Virus record (IMG/VR): IMGVR_UViG_3300046050_000096
Coordinates: 1 to 32,041 of that record
From: a virus
Taxonomy: Duplodnaviria > Caudoviricetes
DNA length: 32,041 bases
Reading direction: 5' to 3' (one strand)
The position numbers and the translations under genes are program-made. Below, one piece after another: positions 1,063 through 25,616 of the stretch. The first letter of the stretch is position 1, and every line of letters starts with the position of its first letter. The notes under the pieces were generated by a model. The model worked only from the letters and a program-made list of their open reading frames with translations. It was not told where the DNA came from and ran no database searches.

Positions 1063-3102
1063 TTATTTGTTCGAGTCGAAACCGTCGACAACAGCGGTGT
1101 GAAAGCGATTGCCGCTCCACGAGTTAGCAACCACGACCCCATCATACCCCTCGGGCATGTGAACGCCAGCAGCGCGAATACCTTGATTGCCGCTATACAA
1201 ATAGCCGTTGTGCCAATAGGACGGCCCCCGTTTGCGATTTTGCAGAATCAGCCGCAGCTCTTCCTGGAGCATTTGCCGAAACGACGAAGGCGACAGGACC
1301 CTGCCGGTGCGAAGCGAACGCATAAATGCCATAATATCGCGAGCACTCATGATCCAGCCTCCCACCCCCGTAAATGTTAGTTCCCCGAAGTCATGTCCCC
1401 CACTCGGCGTCGTACCGTGCTCATAGGCCAGCGCGTGCGAATCGTCAGCCGGGGGCGCTGAATATGCATTTTCGACGCAGCCAGCGAATATCTCCCGCTG
1501 TACGAAATCGTCGTATGCCTCCCCAGTCACTTCTTCGATAAGCGCCTCAATAACAGCGAGGGAGCCATTTTTGTAATCGTACTTTGCGCCCACCTCGTGC
1601 CCGAGCGGCCCGTCCAGATAATCCTGCACTTCCGTGTCGAACCCGCCGTAAAGGTCTATGTCTGTCGTCAACCCCGAACGCATTTGCAGAAACTGGCGAA
1701 CGGTAGCCTCTTCCGCCCCAGATGCAATAGAAGTATAACGATCTTTGAGGTACGGCCATGCGGCGTCACTCAAGCTCAAATGCCCTTGTTCGACGAGGCG
1801 CATTATGGCTACGGCAGTAATGGGCTTCGCAATACTGGCGCCGTGGCAAGGAGTATCCAGCGTAAAGGGCAGATCGCCTTCACCTGATGCACGTGCCTTT
1901 CCTCCCGAGTCAGACTGAACAACCGATCCGTTTTGCTCGATAATCCATGCGTAGCCCACCGGATTGTCGATTCCGGCAGAAATGGAGGAGGGGAAACTGG
2001 TTGATGCTGCCGACCGCGTTTGCGAAGAACGGCGCAGGAAAACAGTGCCATGAACGCCGTGGCTGTCAGTGTCTTTGCGAAACACCGGCGGCTCGAAATC
2101 CGATGCCCCCGGCACAGGCGTAGCCGAAACCATCCTTGCTGTCCGTGCGGTGCCAGAGCCGTCACTGCCCCACACCCACTCTTCGCGGATGTATTTCGAC
2201 CACCAAGATTCCTCCCCGTCGCCTGATTCGGAATGTGTGACGAACGGAAATCCAGCAACAATCCCGTCGGTCGGTAGTCCCGACGTATCTCCGAGAATCA
2301 CGTCTCGGGTGTTGCCAGACACTTCGTCTGTTGCACCGACGGTTACTTTTTCAACAGAGTTGCTGGATTCAATGCCACTGAACGCACGCGCAAGCCCGGC
2401 GAGCACCTGCGTACTTCCCCAAGAAAAAGTGAGGCTCTGGCCGTCGGATGAAAGAAAACCACCGTAGATGTAAGCACCTAAATCAGTGTCAGTTGGGTGA
2501 GGTTGCGAAGCCAGTTCGGTAAAGTCGCTTGGAGGTGATACGGAAGGATGGGTTTGTACTGTGAGAAGGACGAGCACATAATCTCCAGACTGCCAAGAAC
2601 TGTCGGAAAACACCGCTTCTGTTCCCTCGCCGTAGTCTATGGCCGTCCCCCGTTCGGTGAGCACGGCATAGGAAACCGGGCTAACTTCTGCAACTGGACC
2701 GCATCCAGAGGGGGCATATCGAAAGAAGTTCTTTCTAGTTGTGTCACCATCACTTACTGAAACTCCAATAACCACGAACGAAAGGTCTGAAGGCAGACCC
2801 GTTTCGTCTACGGTGATTTCTGGCACCCCTTCTGTCGACCCATCGCTCGCTTGGCTCTGCGAAAGTGACCCACTCAACCACGAAGGCCGCGCATCTCCAT
2901 CATTTTCTCCGCGCACCTCATCGGTGCCATCGGAGTAGGCCAGAAGCTCCACGAACACGTCAAATGCTTCAAGATTATCGCCATCCGCATCGGTTACGGC
3001 CACTCCGCCAGATACATCGGTAGGAGAAAACGAAGCAGTGCCGCTGGACACTCCTGCGTTCACCGTGTTGTCCTTGCGAGAAAAATCGGTTCGGTCAGCC
3101 AT
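1063..3102 (-). CDS. Tail-associated protein with C-terminal serine hydrolase domain of beta-lactamase class C / D-Ala-D-Ala carboxypeptidase type (679 aa)
   Basis: Start ATG at 3102 overlaps the upstream stop (TAATG). Motifs SxxK (ASIAK), LQMRSG, YxN (YKN) and HxG (WHNG) are present. N-terminal half is Ser/Thr/Asp/Gly-rich and beta-sandwich-like. Confidence 0.85.
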   Translation of the reverse strand: MADRTDFSRKDNTVNAGVSSGTASFSPTDVSGGVAVTDADGDNLEAFDVFVELLAYSDGTDEVRGENDGDARPSWLSGSLSQSQASDGSTEGVPEITVDETGLPSDLSFVVIGVSVSDGDTTRKNFFRYAPSGCGPVAEVSPVSYAVLTERGTAIDYGEGTEAVFSDSSWQSGDYVLVLLTVQTHPSVSPPSDFTELASQPHPTDTDLGAYIYGGFLSSDGQSLTFSWGSTQVLAGLARAFSGIESSNSVEKVTVGATDEVSGNTRDVILGDTSGLPTDGIVAGFPFVTHSESGDGEESWWSKYIREEWVWGSDGSGTARTARMVSATPVPGASDFEPPVFRKDTDSHGVHGTVFLRRSSQTRSAASTSFPSSISAGIDNPVGYAWIIEQNGSVVQSDSGGKARASGEGDLPFTLDTPCHGASIAKPITAVAIMRLVEQGHLSLSDAAWPYLKDRYTSIASGAEEATVRQFLQMRSGLTTDIDLYGGFDTEVQDYLDGPLGHEVGAKYDYKNGSLAVIEALIEEVTGEAYDDFVQREIFAGCVENAYSAPPADDSHALAYEHGTTPSGGHDFGELTFTGVGGWIMSARDIMAFMRSLRTGRVLSPSSFRQMLQEELRLILQNRKRGPSYWHNGYLYSGNQGIRAAGVHMPEGYDGVVVANSWSGNRFHTAVVDGFDSNK

Positions 3103-5903
3103 TATTCGGCGCGAACGTCTGAAAGGGTATATTGAGGAGGCGTGCCTGCTTCGGCACGAACATCCGAGAGACTCCAAACCGGAACGTCTCCGCAACAATC
3201 ATCCACACGAGCACGAAGCGTCGAAACTTCGTCCTCAAGTGTAGAAATCCGCCTGCGATGTGTCGATAGCGTATCGGCTTGCTGGTCCTGCTTGGATTCG
3301 AGTTGGCGCACGATCCGAAGCAACGCCCGGTGGCCGAAGTACACGCCGCTCCCGCTCGCCAGCGCCCCGTCGAGCGCCACGTCCGCCGTCGCGTCGTCTG
3401 CGTCGGCCACCTCCAGCGTCGTGTCGTCCGTGCCCTGGTCATCCGTCACCTGCATCTCGATGGGTCGACCGCTCGCGTGATTGACGACAACGATGCGGTC
3501 GCCTTTTTGCAAGACCGCCTCGCCCTGCGCCGTCACCGGAAGTGACGAGATGCTGCCTGAAGCCACCTCCGCGGTTGTTGTAGCAAGCGGATTCTTCGAG
3601 GCAACGTAGCCGGCCAGCTCGCGCACGTCGGCGGCTGCGGTCTCGAGCGTCGTGTCGATGCCGCGCTCGCCATCGTCGGAGGGCGCATCGAAACCGTCGC
3701 CTTCTTCTGCTTCGCTGGTCGTCTCGTAGCTGACGTCGGTGTACTGGAGGCGCACCCACTCCGCGGCGTCGGTGGCGTGGTAGAGGTCTTTCGACAAGCT
3801 GGACGGATGGTAGCGCGCCGTACCCGACGAGCCACTGGCGAGCCGCGCTCCCGGCACGGCGAAGGCTTGTCCCGGGCGGTACGGTGCGTCGTCTGCACCG
3901 GTGAGCAGCGCGTACGTCTCCTGCCGTACCTCCAGCACGCTCGCCTGCGCGGACACCCACGTCGCCGCCATCAACTCGTCAAGGAGCAGCGCGCTTTCGG
4001 CCTCGCCGCTGGCGTACGGGCCGCGCTTCCAGTCGGTCGCCAGCGCGCCGTCCCAAGTCAGTCGCGTCGGGTGCGCGAGGGTGGGGCCTTCGCCGAGGTA
4101 CACCTCCACCTCGTCTTTCTCGCCTTCGGCTCCGGTGCTCACGATGGTGCGGCGCGCGCCGAGCACGTCGCCATTTTCGTCGGCGAGGTAGAGCCGCACG
4201 TTATCCCAGATCACCGCAAAGGCTTTTTTGCGGTCATCGCCGGGGTTTTGCTCCCCGGACGAGTAAAGCGTGATCGTAGGTGTCCCTCCAGTCGGGTGAG
4301 GCGGCGTGATGAAGGTGAAGCTGTTGTCTTTGTCTACCGGCACGCCGACCTCGCCGGCCTTCTTCCCCTGAAAGGCCACGACCGGGAATTTCGATTCGGA
4401 GGCAGTCTCGCCGACAGCACGCCATTCGCAGTCTTGCCAGATGCCTTCGTCGTCCGGGCTGATCGGTACCAAGAAATAATCACCGACCTTGAGCTCTGCA
4501 TACGTCTCATGTAAAATCGGATTGTCAACAGGGCGGTATTTCGGACGCACCTTGAAGTCGGCGCCGAACGCGACCGGCAGGCCCTCCGGCACGATCCGCG
4601 ACGTCCCCGACTTGGACTGCGCCGACACTCCGTCGTCGCGGACGCGACTTCGCACGAAGCTCGGGTCATCCGACGGTCCCGTCACCATCGAGGGCAAATA
4701 CAGCCCCAGCTTCGTGCTCACCTGATCAGCAGACTGTCCGTAGTCGTCGATGAAGGGGGTTCCAATATCGTCTTGCGTATAGTCCTCGTACTTCTTCGCA
4801 TCGACGCTGTGGATGCCCGTGAAGCCGTCGTTGTAATTCCAGCCGGGTGCTCCGTCTGTCAAGCCCCGCCCTTCCTGAAAATCGCCGTTGCCTATGAAGT
4901 CGCCGACTGGCCCGTAGCTGTACAGCGTCTCGGCGGTGCCGCGGCTGGGACGATACGAGCGCTTGCCCTTGCGCCGCTCGTGTCCCTGCGCTGGGTCGTA
5001 CTGGAGCGCGCCGGCCGCCTCTTCGGTGCCCTGCGCGGTGCCGTCGGCCGCGTACACGTGCCGCGTGTAGGGCTTCCCGCCCGCCATCAACTCGCGGCTC
5101 ACGAGGTGCCACCGCCCGCCGTACTGAAAGAGCTGCGCGCCGGTCACGTAGAGGATCTGCTTCAACACCGCGTGGCAGTCGAGCGCGTCGCCTTCGTCGT
5201 CGGCGAACGCCTCGCCGCTGACTTCCAGATGCGCGAGCGGGTCTTCCGCGCTGGACCGGTCTGTCGCCGTCGCCGCCTGGTAGGGGTACCACGCCAGCGC
5301 CGACGTGAGCGGCAGGCTGTACGACAGCTTCCCGAGCGCGCGTTGCACGTGTACCAGCAGCGACTCGCGCACGGTCGGCGTCGAGCCGTCCGGGTACGTG
5401 AGGCCGGTCGATGCGGAATAGTTGGGGCCGCCGCCCGAGGTGTACGGCACGTCCTTGAGGCTGCCGATACCATCGACGGCCTGAACCGCGACGCGGTTCG
5501 GCGCGGTCATCGTGCTGTCGCTGTACACGTCTGTCTTGACACGCCCCGTCCAGTACAGCGACCGGGTGCCCGCCTCGCCAAACGTCTCCTCGATCTCCAG
5601 CAAAAAGCGCCCGTTCGGCGCGCCAAGCAGCTCGTCAAGCAGTCCGGTGCCGCCGACCTTCCAGAACTGCGCCTCGGCGTGGGAGGCCAAAAGCGGCGTG
5701 TAAATGTCGCTCCCCTTGCGCCCCCACGAGAGTGAAAGTGGCGAGTCAGTCGGGTGCGCGTAGCCTTCGCCCTCCGGGTCGCGCTCGTCAAAGAGGAGCG
5801 TCGTCGCGTCGCCGGTGTAGCCGCGCTCCAAGAGGCGCACGTAGGCGTGCCCGCCGTAAGCTGACGCGACACGCGAGTCGTACCTGACGCCGAAGGTAGC
5901 CAT
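3102..5903 (-). CDS. Large minor tail / tail-tip protein (933 aa)
   Basis: Directly downstream of the tape measure gene; tail-hub-like segments (LYWTGRV, AVDGIGSLKDVPY, GAQLFQYGGRWHL); C-terminal coiled coil. Confidence 0.75.
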   Translation of the reverse strand: MATFGVRYDSRVASAYGGHAYVRLLERGYTGDATTLLFDERDPEGEGYAHPTDSPLSLSWGRKGSDIYTPLLASHAEAQFWKVGGTGLLDELLGAPNGRFLLEIEETFGEAGTRSLYWTGRVKTDVYSDSTMTAPNRVAVQAVDGIGSLKDVPYTSGGGPNYSASTGLTYPDGSTPTVRESLLVHVQRALGKLSYSLPLTSALAWYPYQAATATDRSSAEDPLAHLEVSGEAFADDEGDALDCHAVLKQILYVTGAQLFQYGGRWHLVSRELMAGGKPYTRHVYAADGTAQGTEEAAGALQYDPAQGHERRKGKRSYRPSRGTAETLYSYGPVGDFIGNGDFQEGRGLTDGAPGWNYNDGFTGIHSVDAKKYEDYTQDDIGTPFIDDYGQSADQVSTKLGLYLPSMVTGPSDDPSFVRSRVRDDGVSAQSKSGTSRIVPEGLPVAFGADFKVRPKYRPVDNPILHETYAELKVGDYFLVPISPDDEGIWQDCEWRAVGETASESKFPVVAFQGKKAGEVGVPVDKDNSFTFITPPHPTGGTPTITLYSSGEQNPGDDRKKAFAVIWDNVRLYLADENGDVLGARRTIVSTGAEGEKDEVEVYLGEGPTLAHPTRLTWDGALATDWKRGPYASGEAESALLLDELMAATWVSAQASVLEVRQETYALLTGADDAPYRPGQAFAVPGARLASGSSGTARYHPSSLSKDLYHATDAAEWVRLQYTDVSYETTSEAEEGDGFDAPSDDGERGIDTTLETAAADVRELAGYVASKNPLATTTAEVASGSISSLPVTAQGEAVLQKGDRIVVVNHASGRPIEMQVTDDQGTDDTTLEVADADDATADVALDGALASGSGVYFGHRALLRIVRQLESKQDQQADTLSTHRRRISTLEDEVSTLRARVDDCCGDVPVWSLSDVRAEAGTPPQYTLSDVRAE

Positions 5904-9238: not shown

Positions 9239-9700
9239 TCATCCGCCCGCCGTTTCGAGCTTGCCACTGAAGTCGGCGCTGAAGGAGTACTCGATGCGGG
9301 AGTTGGTCTCCCCTTCCAGGTCCAGCTGCGTGAGCGTGGCGACCTGCCCGTATGTTTTGGCATTTGCGTTGACCGAGCCGTCGGCGTTTACGGGAGTGAA
9401 GAAATACCAGTACTTCCCGTTTGCGTGCTGCTGCTCGTAAGCCTCCTCAATCACTTGCTGTCCCGCGTCGCTATAGACGAACAGGCCGCCGCCTTCGATG
9501 GAGGAGGTTTTCTCTCCCGGCTCGTTGGTGGCATGCGGGGCAGTGTCGTCAGTCGTGCTGTCCACCGCTTCAGTCGAGCGCGAGAAGCTCTTCGTTTGCG
9601 TGTGGCCAATCTTGGTGCGGTCTCCTGGCGCGGGCATGTCGTTGGCGCCCAGCGGCGCCGAGGGGAGCGCCATTTCGAGGATGTAGTCTTGGCCTTGCAT
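9239..9700 (-). CDS. Major tail tube protein (153 aa)
   Basis: Tube-like motifs (KSFSRSTEAVDSTT, SSIEGGG, EYSFSADFSG); immediately upstream of the tail chaperones. Confidence 0.8.
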   Translation of the reverse strand: MQGQDYILEMALPSAPLGANDMPAPGDRTKIGHTQTKSFSRSTEAVDSTTDDTAPHATNEPGEKTSSIEGGGLFVYSDAGQQVIEEAYEQQHANGKYWYFFTPVNADGSVNANAKTYGQVATLTQLDLEGETNSRIEYSFSADFSGKLETAGG

Positions 9701-9736: not shown

Positions 9737-10816
9737 TCAGAGGTTGTACGTGCTGCGCAAGTCATTCAGGAGCGCGTCTTGGCGCGAGAGGGGAAAGGTC
9801 CCAGCGCCGACCAATAGGTGCGCCAGCTCGCCGTCTAAAAAATTATCATCTCTCTCAGCGCCGATGGAATACGCTCCCGTTGCTCGCCCGATGTCGCCGA
9901 TGTCGTCTTCGACGCGAGTGTCTCCGACAACCATCGAGCGCCCAGCGCCCGGCTTGTAGCTCACCAGAAACGCGAACCACTTGCCGAGTGCAATTGAGCC
10001 GGCTGGCGAGGAGATCACCGGCGCCGTTCCGATCCGCAGCGACAGTCGGTCTGAACTGTCTTGGGTATCCAGATCGATCTCCGAGGCGGTTCCGTCTGCG
10101 CCGCCCCCGATTAGCGTGTGGTTTCTGTCGCTTTTCAGCCGCGCCACGCCTGTCAAAGTGAAGCCCCATGACCCCGGCGGGAAAACCTTTGACGAGATCG
10201 AGAGCTGATCGTCGGTCCCATCGAACGTGAGGAATGAGAACGCGCCGGAGGTGTCCAGGCCCGGCGCTGCGGCGCTGGAGGGGGCCGTCGCGTCGTGTTT
10301 GAAAACTGATCCGTCGGCCCACGTGCCGCTCGAAGCGTCGTAGCTGGAGCCGTCTGCCTCGAAGGACACGCGTGGGGCCGCCGCCAGAAGCCCCGAGAAG
10401 TCCGCGCTCAGCGAGTATTCGATCTGGCTGCTGCTCTCGCCTTCGATGTCGAGTTGAGTGAGGGTGACCTGCTGCGCGTACGTCTTCGCCTCTCCGTTCC
10501 GGCGCGGCGTAAAGAAAAGCCAGTACTGATTGCCAGCCCGCTGCTGCTCATAACACGCTTCGAGCATCTGCTGCCCCTCACCGATGAATGCGCGCAGCCC
10601 GCCCGCCTCGATTGAGGAGGTTTTCTTGCCCGGTTCGCTGGTGCCATGCGGGGCGGTGTCGTCGGTACCCGTATCAATCGCCTCTGCGGCACGCGCGAGG
10701 CTTTTGGTGCGTAGCCGACCGAGCTGCAGGCGGTCTGCCGGCGCCGGCATCCCGAGCGGGTCGGGAGCCGCCGCGCTCGGCGGCGCGATCTCTACGGTGT
10801 AGTCTTGCCCCTGCAT
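9737..10816 (-). CDS. Tail tube paralogue fused to a LamG-like domain (359 aa)
   Basis: N-terminal ~145 aa aligns closely with 9239..9700 (MQGQDY, DDTAPH, EPGxKTSSIE, LTQLDxEGE, EYSxSADFSG); C-terminus aligns with that of 1..1056. Confidence 0.8.
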   Translation of the reverse strand: MQGQDYTVEIAPPSAAAPDPLGMPAPADRLQLGRLRTKSLARAAEAIDTGTDDTAPHGTSEPGKKTSSIEAGGLRAFIGEGQQMLEACYEQQRAGNQYWLFFTPRRNGEAKTYAQQVTLTQLDIEGESSSQIEYSLSADFSGLLAAAPRVSFEADGSSYDASSGTWADGSVFKHDATAPSSAAAPGLDTSGAFSFLTFDGTDDQLSISSKVFPPGSWGFTLTGVARLKSDRNHTLIGGGADGTASEIDLDTQDSSDRLSLRIGTAPVISSPAGSIALGKWFAFLVSYKPGAGRSMVVGDTRVEDDIGDIGRATGAYSIGAERDDNFLDGELAHLLVGAGTFPLSRQDALLNDLRSTYNL

Positions 10817-12697: not shown

Positions 12698-12734
12698 AAA
12701 GAAAAGTGAGCTCGGGCGCGGGCGGACCGTGCTC
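12698..12734 (-). terminator. Possible weak intrinsic terminator after the major capsid gene
   Basis: Imperfect stem GAGCACGG / CCGAGCTC followed by ACTTTTCTTT on the minus strand. Confidence 0.3.
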
Positions 12735-12740
12735 GTTCTA

Positions 12741-13748
12741 TCAGACAGTGCGCCGCAGGTCCACGAGCGCTTCCGGGCGCACCGTATGCGACCCATAGAC
12801 GTGGAGGCCGCGAATCCCGTCGCCAAACTGGTTCTCGAGGCGCATTGCCTCCATCTGCACGATCTGGTCGGCGAACGTGATGGCCGCGTTGGTGCCCAGG
12901 ACGTTGTGCTCGACGTCGTCGGTGCCGTCGTTGGCGACCTGGACGGAGTTCGACAGGAAGACGTTGAAGCCAGCGACCATCCCAATGGCGCCGGTCATCA
13001 CCACCTCGTCGCCGAGGTCGGATGCCTTGATGAACTCGTCGGCCTTGCGGAGCACGCTGAGCATGTAGGCGCTCAGCGCGGCCACGCGCCTCTGCGAAGG
13101 CACGTTCTTGGCGTCGAGGCGCTTGCTGGCTTCCACGAGCTTCGCGTAGACGTTGGCGCTGTCGATGGTCTCCTTCGCAATGACGTTGTCGGAGTGGGCA
13201 TCGACGTAGTGGCCGGCGATGTACTCGTCATCGTCGTCAGCCATCGATTCGCCGGCCTCTTCGGTGAAGGTGGAGACCAGATCGGAGTTGGACTGCACCT
13301 CGTCCACGTCATCGACCCCGAACGCGAAGTAGCGTGCCTGGTCGATGGTGAGCGTCTGTTGCGTCGAGGAAGGGTCGTCGTATGTGACGGAGCCGTTGTA
13401 GTCCTTGATCGAGATCGAGGAAGGCCGCGTGATCTGGACTGTATCGCCCTGGTCGCTGATGTCGCCCCGGTAGTCAGCGTTGGTGAGGGCGGCCATGTTG
13501 CGCGCCCTGCGCAGCTGTCGGTTGAGGTTCTGGCTCCATACCGTCGGGATGAAGTTGGACACGCTTCCGAGCGCGAGGGGCGCCGTGAAGGCGAGCCCCG
13601 TCAGCCAGTCGCCAAGCGAGCCAGCATCCAGCGAGAGACCGGCCTGCATGGCGTCGGGGCCGGCCTGGGCGGCGCAGGTGGCCGTGCCCGGCATCAGGAA
13701 GGCAACGAAGGCGAGCGCGAGGGCGAGCATCGAGAAGAAGCGCTTCAT
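12741..13748 (-). CDS. Major capsid protein (P22 coat / N4-gp56-like, 335 aa) with hydrophobic N-terminal leader
   Basis: SVSNFIPTVWS, QGDTVQI, LTIDQARYFAFGVDDVD, FGDGIRGLHVYG and VRPEALV motifs; follows the scaffold gene. ATG at 13748; an in-frame GTG at 13562 is an alternative start. Confidence 0.92.
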   Translation of the reverse strand: MKRFFSMLALALAFVAFLMPGTATCAAQAGPDAMQAGLSLDAGSLGDWLTGLAFTAPLALGSVSNFIPTVWSQNLNRQLRRARNMAALTNADYRGDISDQGDTVQITRPSSISIKDYNGSVTYDDPSSTQQTLTIDQARYFAFGVDDVDEVQSNSDLVSTFTEEAGESMADDDDEYIAGHYVDAHSDNVIAKETIDSANVYAKLVEASKRLDAKNVPSQRRVAALSAYMLSVLRKADEFIKASDLGDEVVMTGAIGMVAGFNVFLSNSVQVANDGTDDVEHNVLGTNAAITFADQIVQMEAMRLENQFGDGIRGLHVYGSHTVRPEALVDLRRTV

Positions 13749-13792
13749 GGCGCGAGGGGGTTGTGTGTGGAGGTCGAGTGAGATTTTGGGAG

Positions 13793-14578
13793 TCAGTCGG
13801 TGATGCGGCCGTCGGCGGCGGCCTGGTTGATCTCGTCGGCGTGCTCGTCGAACTCTTCGGGGCTCATCGAGGCGATCTCCTCCTCGGACCACGTGCGCTT
13901 CCCGCCGGAGCCCGCTGCACCGGGCCCGCCCTCGTAGCTGCCGCCACCGCCCTGCGGCTCTTCGTCGGCGAAAAGATTTTGCGCCTCGCCATTCTCGCGC
14001 ATCCGGCTCAGAAGGTCGGAGGCATTCGCAAATGCTCTGCCCTCGCCGCCGGGCAAGCGATTGCCTTCCGCGTCGGTGGCGACGGTGCCGTGCTCGTCGT
14101 CGTGCTCCAAGCGATCCCTGAGGCGGTGCGCCAGGTACGAGTCCGAGCCGCCTTCGAGGTACTCGGGGCGCACGCCCATCTCGCGCCCGGCCTCGATCAA
14201 GTCCGACACGAGCAGCCGGCCGCGCATCTGATCGAGCGACTCACGCAGCGGCTCGACTTCGTCCTCGCGCCACCGCTCGCGGTAGCTCTCCAGGTCTACC
14301 TCTCCTTCCTCGCCTCCGCCGTGCGCTTCGAGGACCGCCGAAATGACGCCCTCGTCTTGCGCGGCCTCGTCTCGGGGCACCATGCCCTCCGTCGCGCTCT
14401 CCTGAGCCTCGTTGCGGGCGCGAGTGACTTGCGCCTCGTGATGCTGGCGGGTGACGTGGCCCTCCGCGGCCCCAGCGGGGGTGTTGAGGCTGTGGCCGTC
14501 CGGCAGGGCGCCGGGAAGGTCCTCGGTGTCTACCTGCACCGTTTCGCCGCCGTCCGTCTCCACCTGAAAAAGAGGCAT
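13793..14578 (-). CDS. Capsid scaffolding protein (261 aa)
   Basis: Very acidic and helical, with a Gly-rich linker and C-terminal MSPEEFDEHADEINQAAADGRI; immediately upstream of the capsid gene. Confidence 0.75.
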   Translation of the reverse strand: MPLFQVETDGGETVQVDTEDLPGALPDGHSLNTPAGAAEGHVTRQHHEAQVTRARNEAQESATEGMVPRDEAAQDEGVISAVLEAHGGGEEGEVDLESYRERWREDEVEPLRESLDQMRGRLLVSDLIEAGREMGVRPEYLEGGSDSYLAHRLRDRLEHDDEHGTVATDAEGNRLPGGEGRAFANASDLLSRMRENGEAQNLFADEEPQGGGGSYEGGPGAAGSGGKRTWSEEEIASMSPEEFDEHADEINQAAADGRITD

Positions 14579-14696: not shown

Positions 14697-15851
14697 CTAC
14701 TCCGGCGCCGGAATTGCGTTCTCGGTGCCGAGGCGGATGTGCTCGGCGGCGCGCTCGCGTTGCCGGCGCGCGAAGTTCTCGGTGATTTCGCGCCCCTCTT
14801 CGCCGCTCCACTCGCGCAATGCCTCTGCGACTTCACTTTCGTCAGGCACCTCCGCGCGCTCCGGCTCGGGCATCGGGTCGCCCCAGTCGCTTTCGGGGCG
14901 CACGATAGCTCTGCGCCAGCACATGCAAAACGGATGAGGGTTCGCCGGCGCCACGGCTGCGGGAAAGACGCCGGCGCCTTCGCCGATGTGGTCCCACTGC
15001 TCCAGGAACGTGCAGACGTCGGGGTACCACCGCCCCTGTTCGTGCCGGCTGCTGGTCGTCCAGCGCACGTAGACGACGACGGGGCTTTTCACATTGGCGC
15101 GGTCGTCGGCGGCCGTGTGCGCATTGTTGATCTCCGTGACCGCGATACGACGAGCGTCGTAGAGGAGCGATTTCGCGCGGTTCAAGTCCCCAGAGGGCAC
15201 CTCCACGTCCTCCTCGATGGCGTCGAGCGTGCGCCCGCCCCGCGCGCCGAGGTTCGACAGGACCTCACGCAGCTCCTCGTCATCGCCGGCGAGCTCCTGC
15301 GCGATTTCGCGTGTGAGGCGCTGGTTCGACACGCCCCGCGCCACGGCCGACGTGATCGCGCGGTCAATGTCTTCGGCGGCCTCCTCAACGTTGCGGGCCA
15401 CGAGCGTCTGGAAGGTCTCCGAGATGGTGTTTTCCCCGAAGGGCAGCCCGCGCCGCGCGAACATGCCTTCCAGGGCGGCTTGGGGCACCGCCGCGAAGTT
15501 GGCGCCGACGTCAATCCCCGCCTCCTCGGAAGCGGACTCCAGCCCCTCCGCGTGGCCATCGGCAGCGAGCTGGGCAGCCTCGCGCGCGCCATTCTCGATC
15601 TGGCCGGCCCACTCGCGCCCCAGGTCGGCCATGCGTTGCCGTATGTTCGAGCGCAGGGCCTCGGCGCGCTCCTCGGTGATGCGACCTTCCTCCTGGTCCT
15701 CGACGACATCTGCAAGGAAGCGCGCGAAGCTCTCGCGCAGCTGCCGTAGCTGCTGGTCGCGCAGTCCGCCCTCGCGCAGGAGCTCCTCGCGCGAGGCGTA
15801 GAGGGCGCGCAGGTAGGCGCTCTGGACTGGCTCGGAAGCCTCGTCGGGCAT
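14697..15851 (-). CDS. Head morphogenesis / minor capsid protein (MuF, SPP1 gp7-like, 384 aa)
   Basis: ARRIAVTEINNAH, DVC and PHPFCMC motifs. Confidence 0.85.
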   Translation of the reverse strand: MPDEASEPVQSAYLRALYASREELLREGGLRDQQLRQLRESFARFLADVVEDQEEGRITEERAEALRSNIRQRMADLGREWAGQIENGAREAAQLAADGHAEGLESASEEAGIDVGANFAAVPQAALEGMFARRGLPFGENTISETFQTLVARNVEEAAEDIDRAITSAVARGVSNQRLTREIAQELAGDDEELREVLSNLGARGGRTLDAIEEDVEVPSGDLNRAKSLLYDARRIAVTEINNAHTAADDRANVKSPVVVYVRWTTSSRHEQGRWYPDVCTFLEQWDHIGEGAGVFPAAVAPANPHPFCMCWRRAIVRPESDWGDPMPEPERAEVPDESEVAEALREWSGEEGREITENFARRQRERAAEHIRLGTENAIPAPE

Positions 15852-16021
15852 CAGTTCACGTACAGGTCGAAGACATCCAGCAGGTCAGAACTGGTGCACC
15901 ACAGACTGCGCTGGTCGGCTGTCTCCAAGAAGACCGACTGCGCCCACGCCTCGGTGTGGTCACCGCAGTCGACGCTCATGTAGGCGCACCAGTACCAGTA
16001 CATGTCGGCTCGGTGCTTCAT
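15851..16021 (-). CDS. Small hypothetical protein (56 aa, Trp/Cys/Tyr-rich), absent from the ORF track
   Basis: Manual translation MKHRADMYWYWCAYMSVDCGDHTEAWAQSVFLETADQRSLWCTSSDLLDVFDLYVN; ATGA overlap upstream and TGATG overlap downstream. Confidence 0.65.
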   Translation of the reverse strand: MKHRADMYWYWCAYMSVDCGDHTEAWAQSVFLETADQRSLWCTSSDLLDVFDLYVN

Positions 16022-16260
16022 CTCATGAGCGGGGTCTTCTCGGCATTCGCCTTCTCGATGGCCACGCGCGGAGGGGCCTCATCTTGCTCGACAGCAAGGC
16101 GGAATGTGTACAGGCGCTCCCACCCAAAGAAGGACCACCAGGCGAGATGCGCGCACTGAATCCAACCCAGCGCGTTGGCCTCCGGCGTGGCCAGCCAGTC
16201 GATCAACCAGCCGCGGTTGTCCTGCGCGATCAAGCGCCGGCATATGCTTTCGGGAATCAT
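16018..16260 (-). CDS. Small hypothetical protein (80 aa, Trp-rich)
   Basis: MIPESICRRL start overlaps the previous stop (ATGA); its stop overlaps the next start. Confidence 0.6.
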   Translation of the reverse strand: MIPESICRRLIAQDNRGWLIDWLATPEANALGWIQCAHLAWWSFFGWERLYTFRLAVEQDEAPPRVAIEKANAEKTPLMR

Positions 16261-16451
16261 CCCATTTTTCGGATCTGTTCGATGATGCGCTCGGCCTTTT
16301 CGACGCGCTCGCTCGTCCATTCGGTGTCCACGCCCGGCTCGTCAGAGAACCGCAGCACGGCCGCGGCCAGGTCGGCCACGTCCATCAGCGCAAGGGCCTC
16401 TTCATCACCGTCGAGCTCAAGCGTGCGGCTGTGCTTTCCGTCTACGTCCAT
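16257..16451 (-). CDS. Small hypothetical protein (64 aa)
   Basis: Starts 9 nt after the portal stop with GAGG upstream; acidic; coupled to the next gene. Confidence 0.6.
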   Translation of the reverse strand: MDVDGKHSRTLELDGDEEALALMDVADLAAAVLRFSDEPGVDTEWTSERVEKAERIIEQIRKMG

Positions 16452-16460
16452 GTTTGGCCT

Positions 16461-17936
16461 CTATCCGCTAATGCGAGAGAATGCGTCCTGCTCTTGGGCC
16501 TGCCGGTCAGCCTGCGCGCTGGCGGCTTCCTCGACGTCTTCGCGGTCGTAGCTGACCCCGTAGTGATCGAGGATTGCCGTCGTCACCTCCACGGCCGCCG
16601 CCGTGCCCGCCGGGAGCGTGGCCGAGCGCCCGACCACCATATTTTTTAGCTTCTCGAGCTCGGCCTCCACGTCCTTCGGGGTCACGTCGGGGGAGCGCTC
16701 GACGGAGTAGACGCCCCACAGGTCAGGGCTCGACGGAAAGAGAGCCTGCTCCATGCGCCACATCCCCGCGCGCTCGAAGTCCGTCACCGGCTCGGCGAGT
16801 AGCTGAACGAAACCAGCGACGCCGCCCATGACCTCGAAGGTCATCTCCGTAGCGGTCTTCTCTTTCGCCGCATCGCCGTAGTCCTGAAACGCCTGGTGGT
16901 AGAAGTCGATGCGCTTTTGCTCCAGGCGGCCGGCGCGGATCTGGGCCGGCTCCATCGGTGGGGAGTACCAGCCGTGATCGTTGCCTTCGTTTGGCTTCTG
17001 GAGGATCGCCTCACCCTCGGCAATCGAATCGCGCACCTCATCGAAGTCGATGAAGTCGCCGGCCACGCCGAAGCGCGGCGTGCAGCCCATGCGGAGCAAA
17101 TTGTCCAGCTCCGACTCGCCGTTGAAGATGGCAAGCTGCTTGCGCGCGAGTAGGTAGCCGACCTCGCGCGGAAGCGGCATACGGTGCCGAAAAATCGGCA
17201 GGATACGCCGGCGCCTCTCGGCCGTCTCGAAGTACTCATACGAGCCGCTCTCCCCGATAGGCTTCAGGTCCTCGCCCAGCTTTTCCCAGCCTTCCAGCCC
17301 GTAGTGCGTGTAGATCGTCTCGTAGCTTTTGTCCTCCAGGACGCTCCCGGACTCGACGCGCTGGTCTTTTACGAGGACCTCGACGAGGCGCCCGCCGTCA
17401 CGCCCGACGCTTACCACGTCCTGTGGGTCGATCAGACGGATCACCGGCCGCCGGACTGTCGTCCCGTCCTCGCCGGTGACGGCCGCGTCGACGACGCCCC
17501 ACGCCTCGTGCAGGACCGTCAGGCGTGCGGCCGTCTTCCAGAGCAGGCTGGCCAGCGACGTCTCGTCCCCGTCTGCGTTGGTGCGCAGGCGATGCGCGTC
17601 GGTGCCGTCTTCGGTGGGGTCGCCCAGGCCGCGCGCGCTAAAGGCGGGCTGCCCGTTTTCGCCTTCGCCGATCTCCTCGCGCCAGGTGCGGCTCGTTTTC
17701 TCCTCGTCCTGGAAGAGCAGACCGACGAGCGCGTCGACGGCGCGGCCCAGGTCGAGCGCGGGGTCGGCCGTCTTCTTGCGCTCCTTGTAGGCGGCCGTGG
17801 CCTCCCCCTGCGCGCGCTGGATCAGGTACTGACCCACCTTTCCCTCGTGAGCGTAGGCGCCGGTGTAGACGTCCCACGCGGTGCGCCAGCGCGGGCGGCG
17901 CGCGTCGTAGACGGGATGATCAGGAGCCGTAGCCAT
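16461..17936 (-). CDS. Portal protein (491 aa)
   Basis: Follows TerL; HPVY...W...DVYTG, YLIQRAQGE..AAYKER and EKTATE motifs resemble DUF4055-type portals. Confidence 0.85.
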   Translation of the reverse strand: MATAPDHPVYDARRPRWRTAWDVYTGAYAHEGKVGQYLIQRAQGEATAAYKERKKTADPALDLGRAVDALVGLLFQDEEKTSRTWREEIGEGENGQPAFSARGLGDPTEDGTDAHRLRTNADGDETSLASLLWKTAARLTVLHEAWGVVDAAVTGEDGTTVRRPVIRLIDPQDVVSVGRDGGRLVEVLVKDQRVESGSVLEDKSYETIYTHYGLEGWEKLGEDLKPIGESGSYEYFETAERRRRILPIFRHRMPLPREVGYLLARKQLAIFNGESELDNLLRMGCTPRFGVAGDFIDFDEVRDSIAEGEAILQKPNEGNDHGWYSPPMEPAQIRAGRLEQKRIDFYHQAFQDYGDAAKEKTATEMTFEVMGGVAGFVQLLAEPVTDFERAGMWRMEQALFPSSPDLWGVYSVERSPDVTPKDVEAELEKLKNMVVGRSATLPAGTAAAVEVTTAILDHYGVSYDREDVEEAASAQADRQAQEQDAFSRISG

Positions 17937-19896: not shown

Positions 19897-20472
19897 TTAC
19901 CAATCGAGCGTAAACGGACGGACGCGCACGCCGAACGCAACGCCGCGCCGGCCGCCTTCCGCCAGGCGGTAGCCCGCGTGCAGCTCGACGCGACGCCACC
20001 GAAGGCCAGCGCCGGCGCCAGCACGAAAGCCCAGCGGCCCCCAGCCGGTAGCGGCGTAAGGGTACAGCTCCCAATGCTCTTCCGGCACCGCGTATTCGGC
20101 CTGCTCGAAGCGAGAAGCGGCGGGGTTAAAGGTCGTGAGCGTCACGCTCGGGTCCGAAAAGACACCGCCGCCCTTCACCTGGAGCGGCGCGTTGCTGACG
20201 AGCCCATCGGTCTCGAAGTCTTTCGGCCGGGCGTAGCAGTCGCGCACGGTGTCGGTCCGCGTCTCGTAGATGGTGCGCTCAACCGGCCGCGTGCGCGTCA
20301 CCGTGTCGGTGCGCGTGATCGTGCGCTCGGCATAGACGGTGTCCGTCTGCGCAGGCGCGGCGGATGTTCGCGCGCGGGTCTCTGGCTCCTGGCAGCCGCG
20401 GAGCTGCCAGGCGAGCGCGAAGACGGCGGCGAGCATTGCCAGGAGGCCGGCGATGCGAAGAGGGCTATTCAT
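19897..20472 (-). CDS. Lysis-cassette membrane protein, possibly spanin-like (191 aa)
   Basis: N-terminal hydrophobic helix ending LRGC, Thr-rich DTV linker, C-terminal amphipathic beta strands ending in Trp; third gene after amidase and holin. Confidence 0.6.
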   Translation of the reverse strand: MNSPLRIAGLLAMLAAVFALAWQLRGCQEPETRARTSAAPAQTDTVYAERTITRTDTVTRTRPVERTIYETRTDTVRDCYARPKDFETDGLVSNAPLQVKGGGVFSDPSVTLTTFNPAASRFEQAEYAVPEEHWELYPYAATGWGPLGFRAGAGAGLRWRRVELHAGYRLAEGGRRGVAFGVRVRPFTLDW

Positions 20473-20971
20473 CGCTATTCTGGGATTTGATCTCGGGAAG
20501 ATCGGGGAGCATGTGGTCGGCGCGCTTTTTTCCGACGGCATTTTCGTAGCAAGAGACGCCTTCGGTGATGCAAATGTAGATCATGGTCGCCTGCCCCCAG
20601 ATGGCTGCCGCGTCGGGCACGACCGCAGAATGGCGGATCGCGTCGGACACGAGGAGGCCGACGATCACAACAGCCGCATACTCGATCACCTTCCACCCCG
20701 TCGCGCGGAGGTGCCCGCTCTTGATAGACTGGCCGTCGCGCCAGGCGCGGACCAGGCCGGCCGCCAGGTCACACGCGACGATGGCCCCGGTCAGAAGCAT
20801 CAGCTCGCTGTGTCGGCCGATCGCGCTGGCGTAGAGGCCGAGCACATACAGGACTTTTTGCCAGAGCACCCCGAGGACGGTGGCGACGGGCAACTTGACC
20901 TGCCAGCTTTCGATGAGGCTGGCGAGCGGGCTGGCGACGAGCTGGTAGACTTTTTCGGTGGGCGAAAGCAT
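20465..20971 (-). CDS. Holin (phage holin 4 / TcdE-like, 168 aa)
   Basis: Several TM segments; DLAAGL..AW, IKSGHLR..GWK and EGVSCYEN motifs; TGATG overlap with the amidase. Confidence 0.85.
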   Translation of the reverse strand: MLSPTEKVYQLVASPLASLIESWQVKLPVATVLGVLWQKVLYVLGLYASAIGRHSELMLLTGAIVACDLAAGLVRAWRDGQSIKSGHLRATGWKVIEYAAVVIVGLLVSDAIRHSAVVPDAAAIWGQATMIYICITEGVSCYENAVGKKRADHMLPDLPEIKSQNSDE

Positions 20972-21579
20972 CAGGAAAGCGTGGCGGCGTATTCGGAAGC
21001 GGTGCGGGCGTAGGCGCGGGCGAGCATTTCTTTCCGCTCCACCGCGCGCTGCCAGTCGCGCCGGTTTGAGCCAAAGAAGGGCTCGCAGATGATCGTCGGC
21101 ATCGTCGTGCCCCAGAGAAGCGTTCCGCCGCGCTCGCCCTCGGCGCGTGGCTTTGCGCCGCGCCGCGGCAGCCCCAGAGCGTCGACGATCTCGTCGAGGG
21201 CAATTTTGGCCAGGTGCTGTCCCTCCCCGCTGACGGAGCAGAAAAGCGTCTCGCTGCCGGTGGCCATGAAATCCACGCTGTTGAAGTGCAACTCCATCGC
21301 GAAGTCCGCGCCGGTGGCGTTCACTTTGTCGGGGAGGTCGCTGTACCCGCCCGGATAATCCCCGCGCCGCACGACCTCGACGCGCACGTCCTGGACAGAA
21401 GCGGCCACGCTCTGCGCGATGGGCGTGTTGAAGTCGTACTCCGTGACGCCGCCCACCGACGCCGCGCCGGGCGAAGACGGGCGATGGCCGACGATGAGGG
21501 CACACTTTGGAGCGTCGGGATCGGGGCAGGTCATGAGCGGCGGGCAGGTGTAGGGGGTGTGCGTGCCCGGTCCTACCAT
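20971..21579 (-). CDS. Endolysin, N-acetylmuramoyl-L-alanine amidase (Amidase_3); true start may be 21534
   Basis: Zn-amidase motifs LIVGH, TEYDFN, ELHFNS and ICEPFFGSN. Confidence 0.92.
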   Translation of the reverse strand: MVGPGTHTPYTCPPLMTCPDPDAPKCALIVGHRPSSPGAASVGGVTEYDFNTPIAQSVAASVQDVRVEVVRRGDYPGGYSDLPDKVNATGADFAMELHFNSVDFMATGSETLFCSVSGEGQHLAKIALDEIVDALGLPRRGAKPRAEGERGGTLLWGTTMPTIICEPFFGSNRRDWQRAVERKEMLARAYARTASEYAATLS

Positions 21580-21595
21580 GCGTCCCCACCGGCCC

Positions 21596-21700
21596 GTTTC
21601 GCACTTTGTGACAAAAGCTTACCCATAAACTTGTGGCACTATTTGTTATAAATGATGTAACACACAGGCAAGCCAACGGCTCCACACCTCCGCAACAGAC
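21596..21700. promoter_or_regulatory. AT-rich divergent control region between the late operon and the Mor-like activator
   Basis: Only divergent junction in the window; palindrome TTTGT-G-ACAAA at 21605-21615. Confidence 0.6.
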
Positions 21701-22084
21701 ATGAACGACGACGACTTCGCGGCTCTCCTGGACCTCCAGCGCCACCTGAACAACGAGACGGGGGAGGTTGGAGACGTGATCAGCGCCGCGCTCCTCAACG
21801 AGCTGGGGCCGGAGTCTCAGGAAGACGCGCTGGAGCTGGCAATGGCCGCCGTTGCGCGCCTCGTCGAGCACTTCGACGGGCGGCGCGTCCACATCTCTTC
21901 CATCAAGCGCGCGAAGGACGCGATCCGCAAGGATAAAGCCCGGCGGCTGTTTGCGGAGGGGGCATCCAGGCGGCAGGTCACGGCCCGGACGGGCCTCTCT
22001 CCCTACCAGGCCCGGCAGGTGCGGGCGGAAATGGAAGCCGACTGCGACGGCGGGCCGCTGGCTGAGGCGCGCGCAGAAGCGTAG
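21701..22084 (+). CDS. Mor/C-family transcription activator-like protein (127 aa)
   Basis: LVEHFDGRRVHI (Mor dimerisation-like motif) followed by HTH GASRRQVTARTGLSPYQARQV. Confidence 0.75.
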   Translation: MNDDDFAALLDLQRHLNNETGEVGDVISAALLNELGPESQEDALELAMAAVARLVEHFDGRRVHISSIKRAKDAIRKDKARRLFAEGASRRQVTARTGLSPYQARQVRAEMEADCDGGPLAEARAEA

Positions 22085-22139: not shown

Positions 22140-22964
22140 ATGGACACGGCCGAAACCATTGTGGGCGCATGGCTGGCCGGTCGCCCCGAATCCACTGCCG
22201 ATGAGTACCGCCGCGACGCGCTGCGCTTTCGGCGAAGCGCCGGCGAAGACCTGGCGAGTGTCGGACGCGCAGGCGTCCAAGCGTGGCTCGACGAGCTGGG
22301 CGAGGAACTGGCCGCCTCGACGGTACGGCGCAAGCTGGCGGCCCTCTCCTCGCTCTTCGCGTTCATGCAGGCGGAGGGGCTGCGCGAGGACAACCCGGCC
22401 CTCCGCTGCCGCGCCCCGAAAGCCCGCTCACGCCTTTCGGAGAAGATCCTCACCCGCCGGCAGGTGCGCCACCTGTGCTACATCGGCGCGGAGGCCGGGC
22501 GGGACCGCCTGATGCTACGCACCCTCTACGCCCTGGCTTTGCGCACCTCGGAGTTGGTGTCCATCGAGGCGCGCGACGTGCGCCCCGCCGAAGGCGAGGA
22601 GCCACGCGAGGCCGGCCTGGTGGACCTCTACGGCAAAGGCCAGAAGGAGGCGACGTTGCGCATGCAGGGGCCGCCGTGGCCCTTGCTCTGGAAACGCGCC
22701 GGGGAGTCCAGCCCCGGCGGGGCGCTCTTCGACGTGAGCCGGCAGACGGTCTACAACGTCACGAAGCGCGCGGCGAAGCGCGCTGGCCTGCCCGAAAAGG
22801 TCAGCCCGCACTGGCTTCGCCACAGCGCGGCCTCGCACATGCTCGACGCCGGCGCGCCGGCGCATGAGGTGCGCGATTACCTACGCCATTCATCGCTGGA
22901 GACGACGTCGCGGTACGCACACGCGCGACCCGAAGCCAGCCCCGGCGCGGCGCTTTCGGCGTAG
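22140..22964 (+). CDS. Tyrosine recombinase, XerC/XerD-like (274 aa)
   Basis: SAM-like N-domain (STVRRKLAALSSLF); catalytic R (LRTSEL), K (GKGQK), HxxR (HWLRH), H (LRHSS) and Y (TSRYAH). Confidence 0.93.
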   Translation: MDTAETIVGAWLAGRPESTADEYRRDALRFRRSAGEDLASVGRAGVQAWLDELGEELAASTVRRKLAALSSLFAFMQAEGLREDNPALRCRAPKARSRLSEKILTRRQVRHLCYIGAEAGRDRLMLRTLYALALRTSELVSIEARDVRPAEGEEPREAGLVDLYGKGQKEATLRMQGPPWPLLWKRAGESSPGGALFDVSRQTVYNVTKRAAKRAGLPEKVSPHWLRHSAASHMLDAGAPAHEVRDYLRHSSLETTSRYAHARPEASPGAALSA

Positions 22965-23618: not shown

Positions 23619-25505
23619 TCACGTCCCCCCCCCCCCTGTGGCCTCAACCACCTCAACATCGTCTTGCACGACTTCTCCTGGTCCTTCTTCTTCACCGATC
23701 TTCTTTTTCGCCGCACGAATACAGTCGAGCGCTTGGCACAGGTGGACTGCAAAAGGCGCCTCCACTGCCTCTGCCTGCTCGTGTAGCTCTTCGATCTGCA
23801 AAAATACTTTGGATAGAAGTGACTTGAAGTTGGAGTGCTTGCTGGCCTGCCTTTGTGCTACGAACCCATCCTCGCCATCTCTTTTCAAATCGGCTCGCGG
23901 GTGCGGCGACATCGTGTTAGGGTTTGGCAGAGGTAATCCATCGCCGCTGGGGGTGCCGCCTCCTGAGGGCTGCGCGTCAGCTGCGTCGCCTCCTGCGCCT
24001 TCGGCAGCCTCCTGCGCTTTCGGTAGCCACTCGTCTTTGAGTTTCGTCTGCACGGCCATCGTGCGATGCTTCAAGCGCGAGAGCGCAAAGATCTCGTCTT
24101 GGTACCTCACCTTCATGAGCTGCGTCTCGACCTCGCCGATCTGCTCACGCACCCACGTCTCGCGACGGTCGATCCCGCGTAGGATTTCTTTCACCCGCTT
24201 GCAATACTTTTGTACTTCGACGAGCGGCTGCCCCGAATAATTGCCTTCGGCCCACTCCTCGACATGCCCCACCTCACCGCGGAACGTGCCTCCTTCGGGC
24301 TGGTCTTTCTGCTGCTGCACGTCTGCTTCCGCCAGCGCTTTGCGGAGGGCCTCTGTGCCGTGCTGCTTGAGCTTCGAGATGCTGTCGTCGATGCCGTGCC
24401 GCTCACGGAGCGCCGCCGCTGCTTCCGATGCGGAAAGGTCGCTGGCGTCTTCGCTTTCGTCAGCCTCTGGCGTTTCGCCTTCCGCCTGAATTTCGGCACC
24501 GCTCCGGGTGTCCTCTGGAGCGTGAGAACTGTCGTGGCGTGCCTTCCTTTTCTGCTCCAGTTTTCTCTTCATCGAGTGCGCCGCCTCGGCCGCTTCGCGC
24601 CAGGTGTTTTGCAGGCCGGTGATCAGATAGTCGTCGTCTCCCGGATCGCCGCGCTGCGCGACGTAGCCCTGTGAGGAGTCTCTTACCGTGATCGTGATTC
24701 GCCAGCCTTCCGGCAGGCGCTCCCGTTCGACCTCGCGGTCAAGAGTAGCCACGGCGTCAGCTACTCGCTCGCGGATCGCATCGGAAGCCATGTCGTGCTC
24801 CGCAGCGGCGCGCAGGATCTCTTTCGGGTGATGCGGCGAGTCTTCGCCCCACTCCGCAGCCTTCTCCCGCTGTTCGTCAGTCATCTCGTTCAGCGAGAGA
24901 AACGCCCGCGCCTGCCGCTCCGAAAAAGTGCCTTCTTGCAGGTGCATCCGTACTGCTTTGGGCAGCTTCAGCAGGCGCAACTTATTCGCCACCGTCGAGC
25001 GCCCGATGCCCAGGTGCTCCGCCGCCTCCACCTGCGTCCAGTCGTGCCGGTCGATGCGTCCTTCGATGGCCCGCGCCTCTTCGAGCGGCGTGAGGTCCTT
25101 GCGGTCACGGTTCTCGCTCCATGCGAGCATGTCCATCCGGTGGTCACTGATCTCGCTGCGCCTCACGCGCATCATGCCACGGGCGACGACGTCGTACTCG
25201 GAGTCGCGTGCCGCGAGCACCTCGTGAGCACGCTTCCGGCGGTGGCCGAAGGCGAGCTGCACACGAAGCTGCTCGGCCTGCATCGTCTCGGCCACGGTGC
25301 GAGCGTGGGAGTGCAAGAAATCCCAATGGGAGCGTTCGATCAGCTGACCTTCCTCGTCGACTACTCGGCCGAGAGGCAGTTGCAGCAGCCCCTCGCGCTC
25401 GATGTTGTCGGCAAGAGCTTCGATTTCGGCATCATCATAGCGGTGGCGCGGCTGGTACGGGTTGTCGTCGATCAGGTCGAGGGGAACGGGGACTCCTTTT
25501 CGCAT
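23619..25505 (-). CDS. ParB/RepB/Spo0J-family protein with long C-terminal extension (628 aa)
   Basis: NPYQPR, GLLQ, GHRR, ENRDRKDLTPLEEA and HTH WTQVEAAEHLGIGRSTVANKLRLL. Confidence 0.9.
   Translation of the reverse strand: MRKGVPVPLDLIDDNPYQPRHRYDDAEIEALADNIEREGLLQLPLGRVVDEEGQLIERSHWDFLHSHARTVAETMQAEQLRVQLAFGHRRKRAHEVLAARDSEYDVVARGMMRVRRSEISDHRMDMLAWSENRDRKDLTPLEEARAIEGRIDRHDWTQVEAAEHLGIGRSTVANKLRLLKLPKAVRMHLQEGTFSERQARAFLSLNEMTDEQREKAAEWGEDSPHHPKEILRAAAEHDMASDAIRERVADAVATLDREVERERLPEGWRITITVRDSSQGYVAQRGDPGDDDYLITGLQNTWREAAEAAHSMKRKLEQKRKARHDSSHAPEDTRSGAEIQAEGETPEADESEDASDLSASEAAAALRERHGIDDSISKLKQHGTEALRKALAEADVQQQKDQPEGGTFRGEVGHVEEWAEGNYSGQPLVEVQKYCKRVKEILRGIDRRETWVREQIGEVETQLMKVRYQDEIFALSRLKHRTMAVQTKLKDEWLPKAQEAAEGAGGDAADAQPSGGGTPSGDGLPLPNPNTMSPHPRADLKRDGEDGFVAQRQASKHSNFKSLLSKVFLQIEELHEQAEAVEAPFAVHLCQALDCIRAAKKKIGEEEGPGEVVQDDVEVVEATGGGGT
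23625..23636 (-). repeat. G12 homopolymer just before the ParB stop codon
   Basis: Twelve consecutive C on the + strand. Confidence 0.9.
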
Positions 25506-25616
25506 GGCGTGTGTGGTGGTTTGTGAGTGTTCGCGCGGAAACAATTGGGATGGTCTATGTGACCTCTTCAGTTGTCTCTTTCGTTGAATGACTCATCCTG
25601 GGTCGTGTCTATGAAA

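Follow-up and report, generated by a model that had tools for sequence, protein, structure and literature searches.

What could a stretch resembling a secretion signal be doing at the front of a tailed-phage major capsid protein? The question is raised by a 32,041-nt stretch of DNA (IMGVR_UViG_3300046050_000096; hereafter the window), a provirus record estimated to be 51% complete. The capsid ORF of this record (12741-13748, minus strand) translates into a 335-aa protein, as a sequence-only reading of the locus had stated, and its first 61 residues precede the capsid domain proper. That reading had proposed that the capsid is made as a hairpin precursor tethered to the inner membrane and is then released by host enzymes. 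The analysis presented here, which rests on sequence comparison, finds a leader that is conserved, optional and signal-like, on a capsid of an ordinary family, and membrane tethering by this leader is likely. In the following sections, the identity of the capsid, the coding status of the leader, its distribution and anatomy and the supply of proteases are considered in turn, before the possible roles of the leader are weighed against each other.

The capsid gene and its phage setting

The identity of the capsid was established by profile and structure matches. The phrog_267 profile matched residues 61-332 (E = 1.5e-60), which identified the product as the major head protein; PF25209 was matched with 34.1 bits against a cut-off of 27, and the match to Che8 gp6 (8e16; E = 2.4e-28) began at residue 63. 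The N4-gp56 family model (TIGR04387) scored 51.7 bits, under its curated cut-off of 60. The family profiles and the Che8 structure all begin at residues 61-66 of the 335-aa protein, and the HK97-fold capsid domain (phrog_267, Che8 gp6-like) was accordingly placed at 12741-13565 on the minus strand. Alignment also bore out the proposal that Gly61 occupies the column of Met1 of the leaderless homologues. The AlphaFold models were of low confidence (pLDDT 54 and 57) and uninformative on topology; the best structural match of the full-length model was Che8 gp6. The ESM Atlas gave no usable match.

The capsid gene follows the portal and scaffold genes in the head operon. The head-tail cluster, encoded on the minus strand, runs from the small and large terminase through the portal protein (16461-17936; phrog_145; 45% identity to L107, start placed by alignment), two small ORFs of 56 and 64 aa in the portal-MuF interval (15851-16451), neither with a protease match, a MuF-like head morphogenesis protein (14697-15851; phrog_1657, E = 5.7e-22), a separate scaffolding protein (13793-14578; phrog_206, E = 7.9e-7; 41% identity to the co-located L107 gene) and the capsid to the connectors and tail genes. 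The small-ORF interval is partly replaced in one variant, run X4, in which 15855 is joined to 16257 with 96 other letters between them. The best named match of the cluster was L107, a prophage within a Rhodothermaceae MAG: of 22 window proteins tested, 14 matched it, with identities of 25-52% and the gene order preserved. The Salinibacter phage M8CR30-2 (Holosalinivirus) has the same order of MuF, gap gene and capsid as the window. From this synteny and gene order, we infer that a Salinibacter-like member of the Rhodothermaceae is the likely host. The capsid region was found in five DNA runs from two studies, all labelled halite metagenome, one of which may be the source of the record; no RNA run was among the listed holders. 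The alignment search with the portal found no viral contigs.

Several further features of the window were recorded. Three tail-tube-like genes (phrog_1407) lie on the minus strand at 9239-9700, 9737-10816 and 1-1056; one encodes 153 aa, and two are longer with C-terminal additions, one addition being a concanavalin-like domain. The minus-strand gene at 1063-3198 encodes a tail-region protein with a beta-lactamase-fold domain that matches phrog_382, 'minor tail protein with lysin activity'. A lysis cluster (19897-21892, minus strand) with a holin-family match, a weak amidase match and a lipoprotein-like gene stands immediately upstream of the terminase, pointing to a probable diderm bacterial host. 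A tyrosine recombinase is encoded on the opposite strand (22140-22964, plus strand) among replication and lysis genes, and a long ParB-like gene (23619-25544, minus strand) lies between the replication and lysis genes.

Coding status and start of the leader

Judged by its coding statistics and by its conserved frame in P0002, P0003, P0004, P0059 and P0060, the 61-codon leader (13566-13748, minus strand) is genuine coding sequence. Its GC3 was 0.90, compared with 0.89 for the capsid body. Under a codon model that was built including the capsid body, the leader scored 0.47 bits per codon in frame and -0.85 and -0.44 off frame, with 0.55 for the body. In the variant contig X3, the leader carried six amino-acid and four silent changes and no indel, and 1-nt indels were located in the true non-coding gaps (at 12705, 12727, 14617 and 14688). 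Over capsid codons 62-166 of X3 only four changes were listed, all of them silent, which counts against strong short-term constraint on the leader.

The gene starts of this phage mostly lack Shine-Dalgarno pairing and have open, G-poor upstream regions, with a mean G fraction of 0.19 and a mean fold of -6.1 kcal/mol for 16 picked starts. The region upstream of ATG 13748 (-25 to -1) had a G fraction of 0.08 and a fold of -6.2 kcal/mol, and none of the 201 internal ATG and GTG codons matched it on both measures. The gap between the scaffold stop and the capsid ATG (13749-13792, minus strand), which is G-poor and weakly structured, is likely the initiation region, without a Shine-Dalgarno sequence. 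The earlier reading had pointed to Val63 as a possible alternative start and had named initiation there as the outcome that would overturn it. Val63 is indeed encoded by GTG (13560-13562, minus strand), in frame, and the close variants spanning that codon show no change at it. The sequence fails to support a start at this position: the context is that of an ordinary internal codon (G fraction 0.32, fold -13.6 kcal/mol; 15% of internal codons were as good on both measures), and the codon lies in a predicted stem, with a mean unpaired probability of 0.18 compared with 0.73 at ATG 13748. Val63 is invariant among the leaders, and valine is near-invariant at this column in the leaderless capsids too, which means that its conservation does not mark a start. 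An upstream GTG at 13892 was rejected as a start; its codon score was -0.78 and it overlaps the scaffold gene. The internal Met7, Met19 and Met34 of the leader are not conserved.

Distribution of the leader among related capsids

A first homologue search returned 57 proteins, three of which carried the leader (P0002, 97%; P0003, 88%; P0004, 56%), the other 54 being 259-298 aa long. The leader is present also in the cluster members P0059 and P0060 (fragment). Stops or frameshifts in the leaders of close homologues had been named beforehand as evidence that would speak against a translated leader; it is instead in frame in all five database proteins that have it. In P0004 the frame is kept despite a four-residue insertion and a one-residue deletion. 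Between the present protein (P0001) and P0004, identity was 48% in the leader and 157/274 (57%) in the capsid domain, and the leader alignment scored 132, the highest score among 5000 segment-wise shuffles being 68.

The leader is rare in the wider family. Among 207 homologous proteins, 203 of them usable, 194 had fewer than 15 extra residues and nine had longer extensions, namely the present leader (five), unrelated hydrophobic sequences (two) and polar sequences (two); P0152, with 14 extra residues, fell below the 15-residue cut-off and was spotted by eye. At the DNA level, 399 of 403 loci gave a match, 17 were skipped and 382 were scored, and a comparable leader was found in 0 of the 382, the 403-locus set being redundant with 196 distinct N-termini. 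Two scored loci passed the hydrophobicity filter, but in these a basic stretch and the capsid's own ATG come after the hydrophobic part. A deeper search, taking the best 120 of 1496 matches, added 111 new proteins, none longer than 300 aa. When a leader-only profile was run against longer proteins, three of 8000 scored candidates matched, all of them these capsids, and no donor gene was found, which is weak evidence that there is none. In 401 genomes of the class of G001, the profile gave one match (E = 4e-4), located in a 1179-aa frame, and G001 itself gave two weak matches. L280 was discarded as a leader relative, its match being a chance one inside a tape measure gene. The three virion genes read in Bacteroides phage B124-14 carried no such leader.

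In trees of the capsid domain only, P0004 was placed with the leaderless P0010, and the P0001 group with the leaderless P0005, P0006 and P0011; a single clade of leader-bearing capsids was rejected (p-AU 1e-7, under a simpler model). Since the leader-bearers do not form one clade, the leader would have been lost at least three times or transferred by recombination. By this distribution, it is an optional module, repeatedly lost or exchanged, and dispensable at the family level. The capsid of the syntenic prophage L107 has no leader, which counts against a need for tethering. The DNA behind a leaderless call was covered for L107 and for relatives further removed. Some of the other 'leaderless' entries may therefore owe that status to a miscalled start, even though the Met in question stands exactly at the Gly61 column.

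Two further observations concern the N-termini of relatives. The scaffold-capsid gap of the prophage (L107:7870-8003) contains an 8-bp hairpin and a weak resemblance to the 3' end of the leader, with 43 of 1000 shuffles scoring as high; this could be a decayed leader or chance. The more distant family capsids P0106, P0115 and P0152 have hydrophobic N-terminal extensions of 51, ~15 and 14 residues, respectively, which are unrelated to the present leader, and two of which end in A-x-A directly before the capsid domain. These extensions are possible independent gains or cut-off gene calls; the occurrence of unrelated hydrophobic leaders in the same capsid family would suggest repeated gain.

Anatomy of the leader

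The leader opens with a Met-Lys-Arg n-region followed by a 16-residue hydrophobic helix 1 (residues 4-19; together 13692-13748, minus strand). The 19-residue Kyte-Doolittle hydrophobicity (KD19) of helix 1 was 2.0-2.25 in four homologues, and the n-region has two Lys/Arg; P0060 has Thr at position 2. Compared with P0004, 7 of 22 residues of this part are identical (32%) and the hydrophobicity is equal. A candidate signal peptidase I site, A27-Q28-A29↓G30-P31-D32, follows at 13653-13670 (minus strand), and the motif [AV]-Q-A↓[AG]-P-[DE] at residues 27-32, which is of low information, was kept in four of the four aligned leaders. The n-h-c layout and the conserved A29↓G30 site strengthen the earlier reading of helix 1 as a signal peptide, and by this layout helix 1 resembles a textbook Sec-type signal.

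The second part of the leader is a conserved block (residues 44-61; 13566-13619, minus strand) that contains a marginal helix 2 and the candidate cuts G51↓L52 and G61↓S62. It is identical to P0004 at 14 of 18 positions (78%), exceeding the 57% of the capsid domain. The KD19 of helix 2 was 1.37-1.64 in four homologues, compared with up to 1.49 for a stretch of the soluble P0001 body, and its insertion energy, roughly estimated, was +1.6 to +2.5. The loop between the helices has no Lys/Arg and two to four acidic residues, and the sequence after the leader-capsid junction has four or five basic and no acidic residues, this basic stretch being general to the capsid family too. The charge pattern therefore fits the positive-inside rule for a two-helix hairpin. 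The membrane hairpin proposed earlier thus stands as regards charge and is weakened as regards its second helix, which is only marginally hydrophobic; because of this marginal helix, a procoat-like two-helix hairpin is best described as plausible.

Within residues 1-66, seven bonds passed a signal-peptidase or a rhomboid rule in all four leaders. Only G51↓L52 and G61↓S62 passed both and the other five passed one, both rules being permissive. The rhomboid motif (P4 hydrophobic, P1 small, P2' hydrophobic) is present at G51↓L52 in four of four leaders, near the N-terminus of the helix. G61↓S62 satisfies the same motif, but at the C-terminal end of the helix. The sequence P[LI]ALG↓[ST]V was kept in all leaders.

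Proteases available for processing

In agreement with the sequence-only reading, no protease gene was recognised in the portal-capsid interval by profile searches and ORF inspection. Across the window, which covers ~51% of the provirus, 0 matches were obtained for the S78 prohead protease (PF04586) and for the ClpP-type protease (PF00574), as well as for rhomboid (PF01694) at E<=10, and there was no multi-helix ORF between the terminase and tail genes. The MuF-like gene matched two PHROGs labelled 'head maturation protease' over part of the length of these PHROGs, which we read as MuF-domain matches. The arrangement is not that of the HK97 delta domain, in view of the separate scaffold gene and the 0 matches of PF04586 and PF00574. 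The missing protease had been offered in support of a membrane route, and this argument had to be given up: the leaderless L107 and M8CR30-2 are also without a recognised protease, so its absence is no evidence. As the window holds no protease, any cut would be made by the host or by an enzyme encoded in the half of the provirus that the record lacks. Four rhomboid matches were obtained in the Rhodothermaceae MAG. With a host rhomboid as query against the phage collection, the two records inspected proved to be pieces of bacterial chromosome. Signal peptidase cuts on the outer face of the membrane and could not by itself free a domain that lies in the cytoplasm. Of the release by signal peptidase and/or an intramembrane protease that had been suggested, signal peptidase as the sole enzyme therefore falls away.

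A membrane-tethering model and its alternatives

From the observed coding status, conservation and sequence features, we infer an M13-procoat-like tethering of the capsid to the inner membrane, with release by host signal peptidase together with an intramembrane or cytoplasmic-face protease; we give this model about an even chance of being correct. Translation from ATG 13748 would yield a capsid precursor, which helix 1 would direct to the membrane, with entry via Sec/YidC. Signal peptidase I would cut at A29↓G30 on the periplasmic side, and residues ~48-63 would act as a weak stop-transfer helix, so that the capsid domain would be held on the cytoplasmic side, as in M13 procoat. A second cut would release the subunit, most simply by a host rhomboid at G51↓L52, or by a cytoplasmic-face protease at G61↓S62; the latter would give the N-terminus that leaderless relatives have after Met removal. 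The purpose would be to retain the subunits at the membrane, the site at which procapsids are initiated on the portal, and to put off polymerisation until release. Such a benefit is plausible because SPP1 procapsids are initiated at the inner membrane by way of the portal. A failure of helix 2 as stop-transfer would mean export of the capsid domain, which would count against tethering. In a broader version of the model, an HK97-fold head would be built from a membrane-inserted procoat hairpin by two cuts, of host signal peptidase and host rhomboid, with no phage protease, and the leader would be a portable module that has passed from one capsid lineage to another and arisen anew more than once. 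This broader version, by which membrane-gated capsid maturation would be a recurring, undescribed route in Caudoviricetes, is put forward tentatively, as the chances seem to us to be somewhat against it.

The best conserved part of the leader is residues 44-61 rather than helix 1, a pattern suggestive of a protein contact, and helix 2 is poor as a membrane helix. Both observations would suit a soluble pro-peptide whose hydrophobic helices pack on the scaffold, the portal or each other in the procapsid, in the manner of a small delta domain. Such a pro-peptide would either stay inside the shell or be cleaved off at G61↓S62 by a host protease in the cytoplasm. A basic n-region followed by 16 apolar residues (KD19 2.0-2.25) and an AxA↓[AG]P[DE] site is, as a matter of general knowledge, normally caught by the secretion machinery, however, and a separate scaffold gene is present, so that we regard a soluble role as unlikely, though by no means negligible. 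In its favour, PMC5744158 describes an uncleavable capsid leader that phage 80alpha tolerates. Helix 1 could also tether the capsid alone, as a monotopic or uncleaved anchor that does not cross the membrane, with residues 44-61 forming a recognition helix on the cytoplasmic face, one cut at G61↓S62 and no role for signal peptidase. The P[LI]ALG↓[ST]V sequence of all leaders is in line with this, as the cut would recreate the usual N-terminus of the family, and the unrelated short leaders of P0115 and P0152 (maybe cut-off gene calls) consist of a single hydrophobic stretch to which the capsid domain is directly joined. Yet the acidic, Lys/Arg-free loop and the conserved AxA site better suit a translocated loop, and an anchor made of helix 1 alone has, in our estimate, a small chance.

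The topology problem would disappear if the gene used two starts, GTG 13562 for the cytoplasmic capsid and ATG 13748 for an exported or membrane-bound minor form (a decoy, sink or regulator). The GTG lies in the capsid frame and does not differ among the close variants covering it, Val63 is invariant in the leaders, and family members with equally short N-termini exist (P0072 and P0073). Against this, the GTG has a context like that of internal codons and is predicted to lie in a stem, ATG1 has a better context than any of the 201 internal codons, and Val at this column is near-invariant in leaderless capsids also, which makes a double start improbable. The absence of the leader from most homologues would be expected if this stretch were open but not translated, or if it had arisen through faulty assembly, but the coding statistics contradict such an origin, an in-frame identity of 48%, with indels, is kept in a capsid that is 57% identical, and the leader occurs in contigs of two studies; we consider an artefact of this kind barely credible. 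A single virion N-terminus (G30, L52, S62 or S64) would distinguish the models.

Comparison with known systems

To our knowledge, tailed-phage capsid proteins are regarded as soluble and cytoplasmic, reaching the membrane, if at all, via the portal. If the tethering model is true, the Sec-type leader borne by each subunit would couple head assembly to host secretion and intramembrane proteolysis. In the literature searched, which left most subscription papers outside, no Sec-type leader was described on a tailed-phage capsid protein. Signal-peptide predictions for individual ORFs are reportedly given in the supplement of 10.1101/2020.10.09.334284 and may be relevant to this point. Annotators may trim the starts of such leaders as errors.

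M13 procoat, the precursor of pVIII, consists of a signal peptide, an acidic periplasmic loop, a second helix and a basic cytoplasmic side, and is cut by signal peptidase I. This is the layout proposed for the capsid leader, and no homology is claimed. The second helix of M13 procoat is strong and forms the mature coat protein, whereas that of the present protein is marginal, would have to be shed and is followed by a soluble HK97-fold domain of 274 aa.

The leader of phage 80alpha is short and not known to be membrane-like, and the present leader differs in length and hydrophobicity from the L27-like motif of Prp-cleaved leaders. According to PMC5744158, the capsid and scaffold leaders of 80alpha (Staphylococcus) are cut by the host protease Prp. 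Like the present phage, 80alpha has a separate scaffold gene and an N-terminal extension on an HK97-fold capsid, which in 80alpha is processed by a host protease. Cleavage of the 80alpha capsid leader is described there as dispensable, whereas the present leader is 61 residues long, has the n-h-c layout and occurs on the capsid but not the scaffold, and the phage is of the diderm type. For SPP1, a siphovirus of the scaffold type, passages of PMC13212656 (where T4 is also cited) describe portal-dependent initiation of procapsids on the inner face of the membrane. Attachment is via the portal in these passages, which mention no membrane leader on the capsid, whereas in the present proposal the leader is on the capsid itself.

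The rhomboid motif must sit near the N-terminal end of an N-out helix, as stated in PMC2941825. The TatA-type rhomboid substrates (AarA, GlpG) described there have a small P1, hydrophobic P4 and P2' and helix breakers downstream, and these features are shared by W48-L-T-G51↓L-A, with Pro/Gly downstream. Unlike these substrates, the present helix is marginal and its orientation is a predicted one, and the window encodes no phage rhomboid. The closest comparison is with the Che8-like (phrog_267) capsids, M8CR30-2 and L107, which share the capsid family and the MuF-scaffold-capsid order, with no protease gene recognised, and differ in having Met at the Gly61 position, without the leader. Natural controls are therefore close by, in the form of sister capsids and a fully syntenic prophage that lack the leader, with no phage protease in the head cluster.
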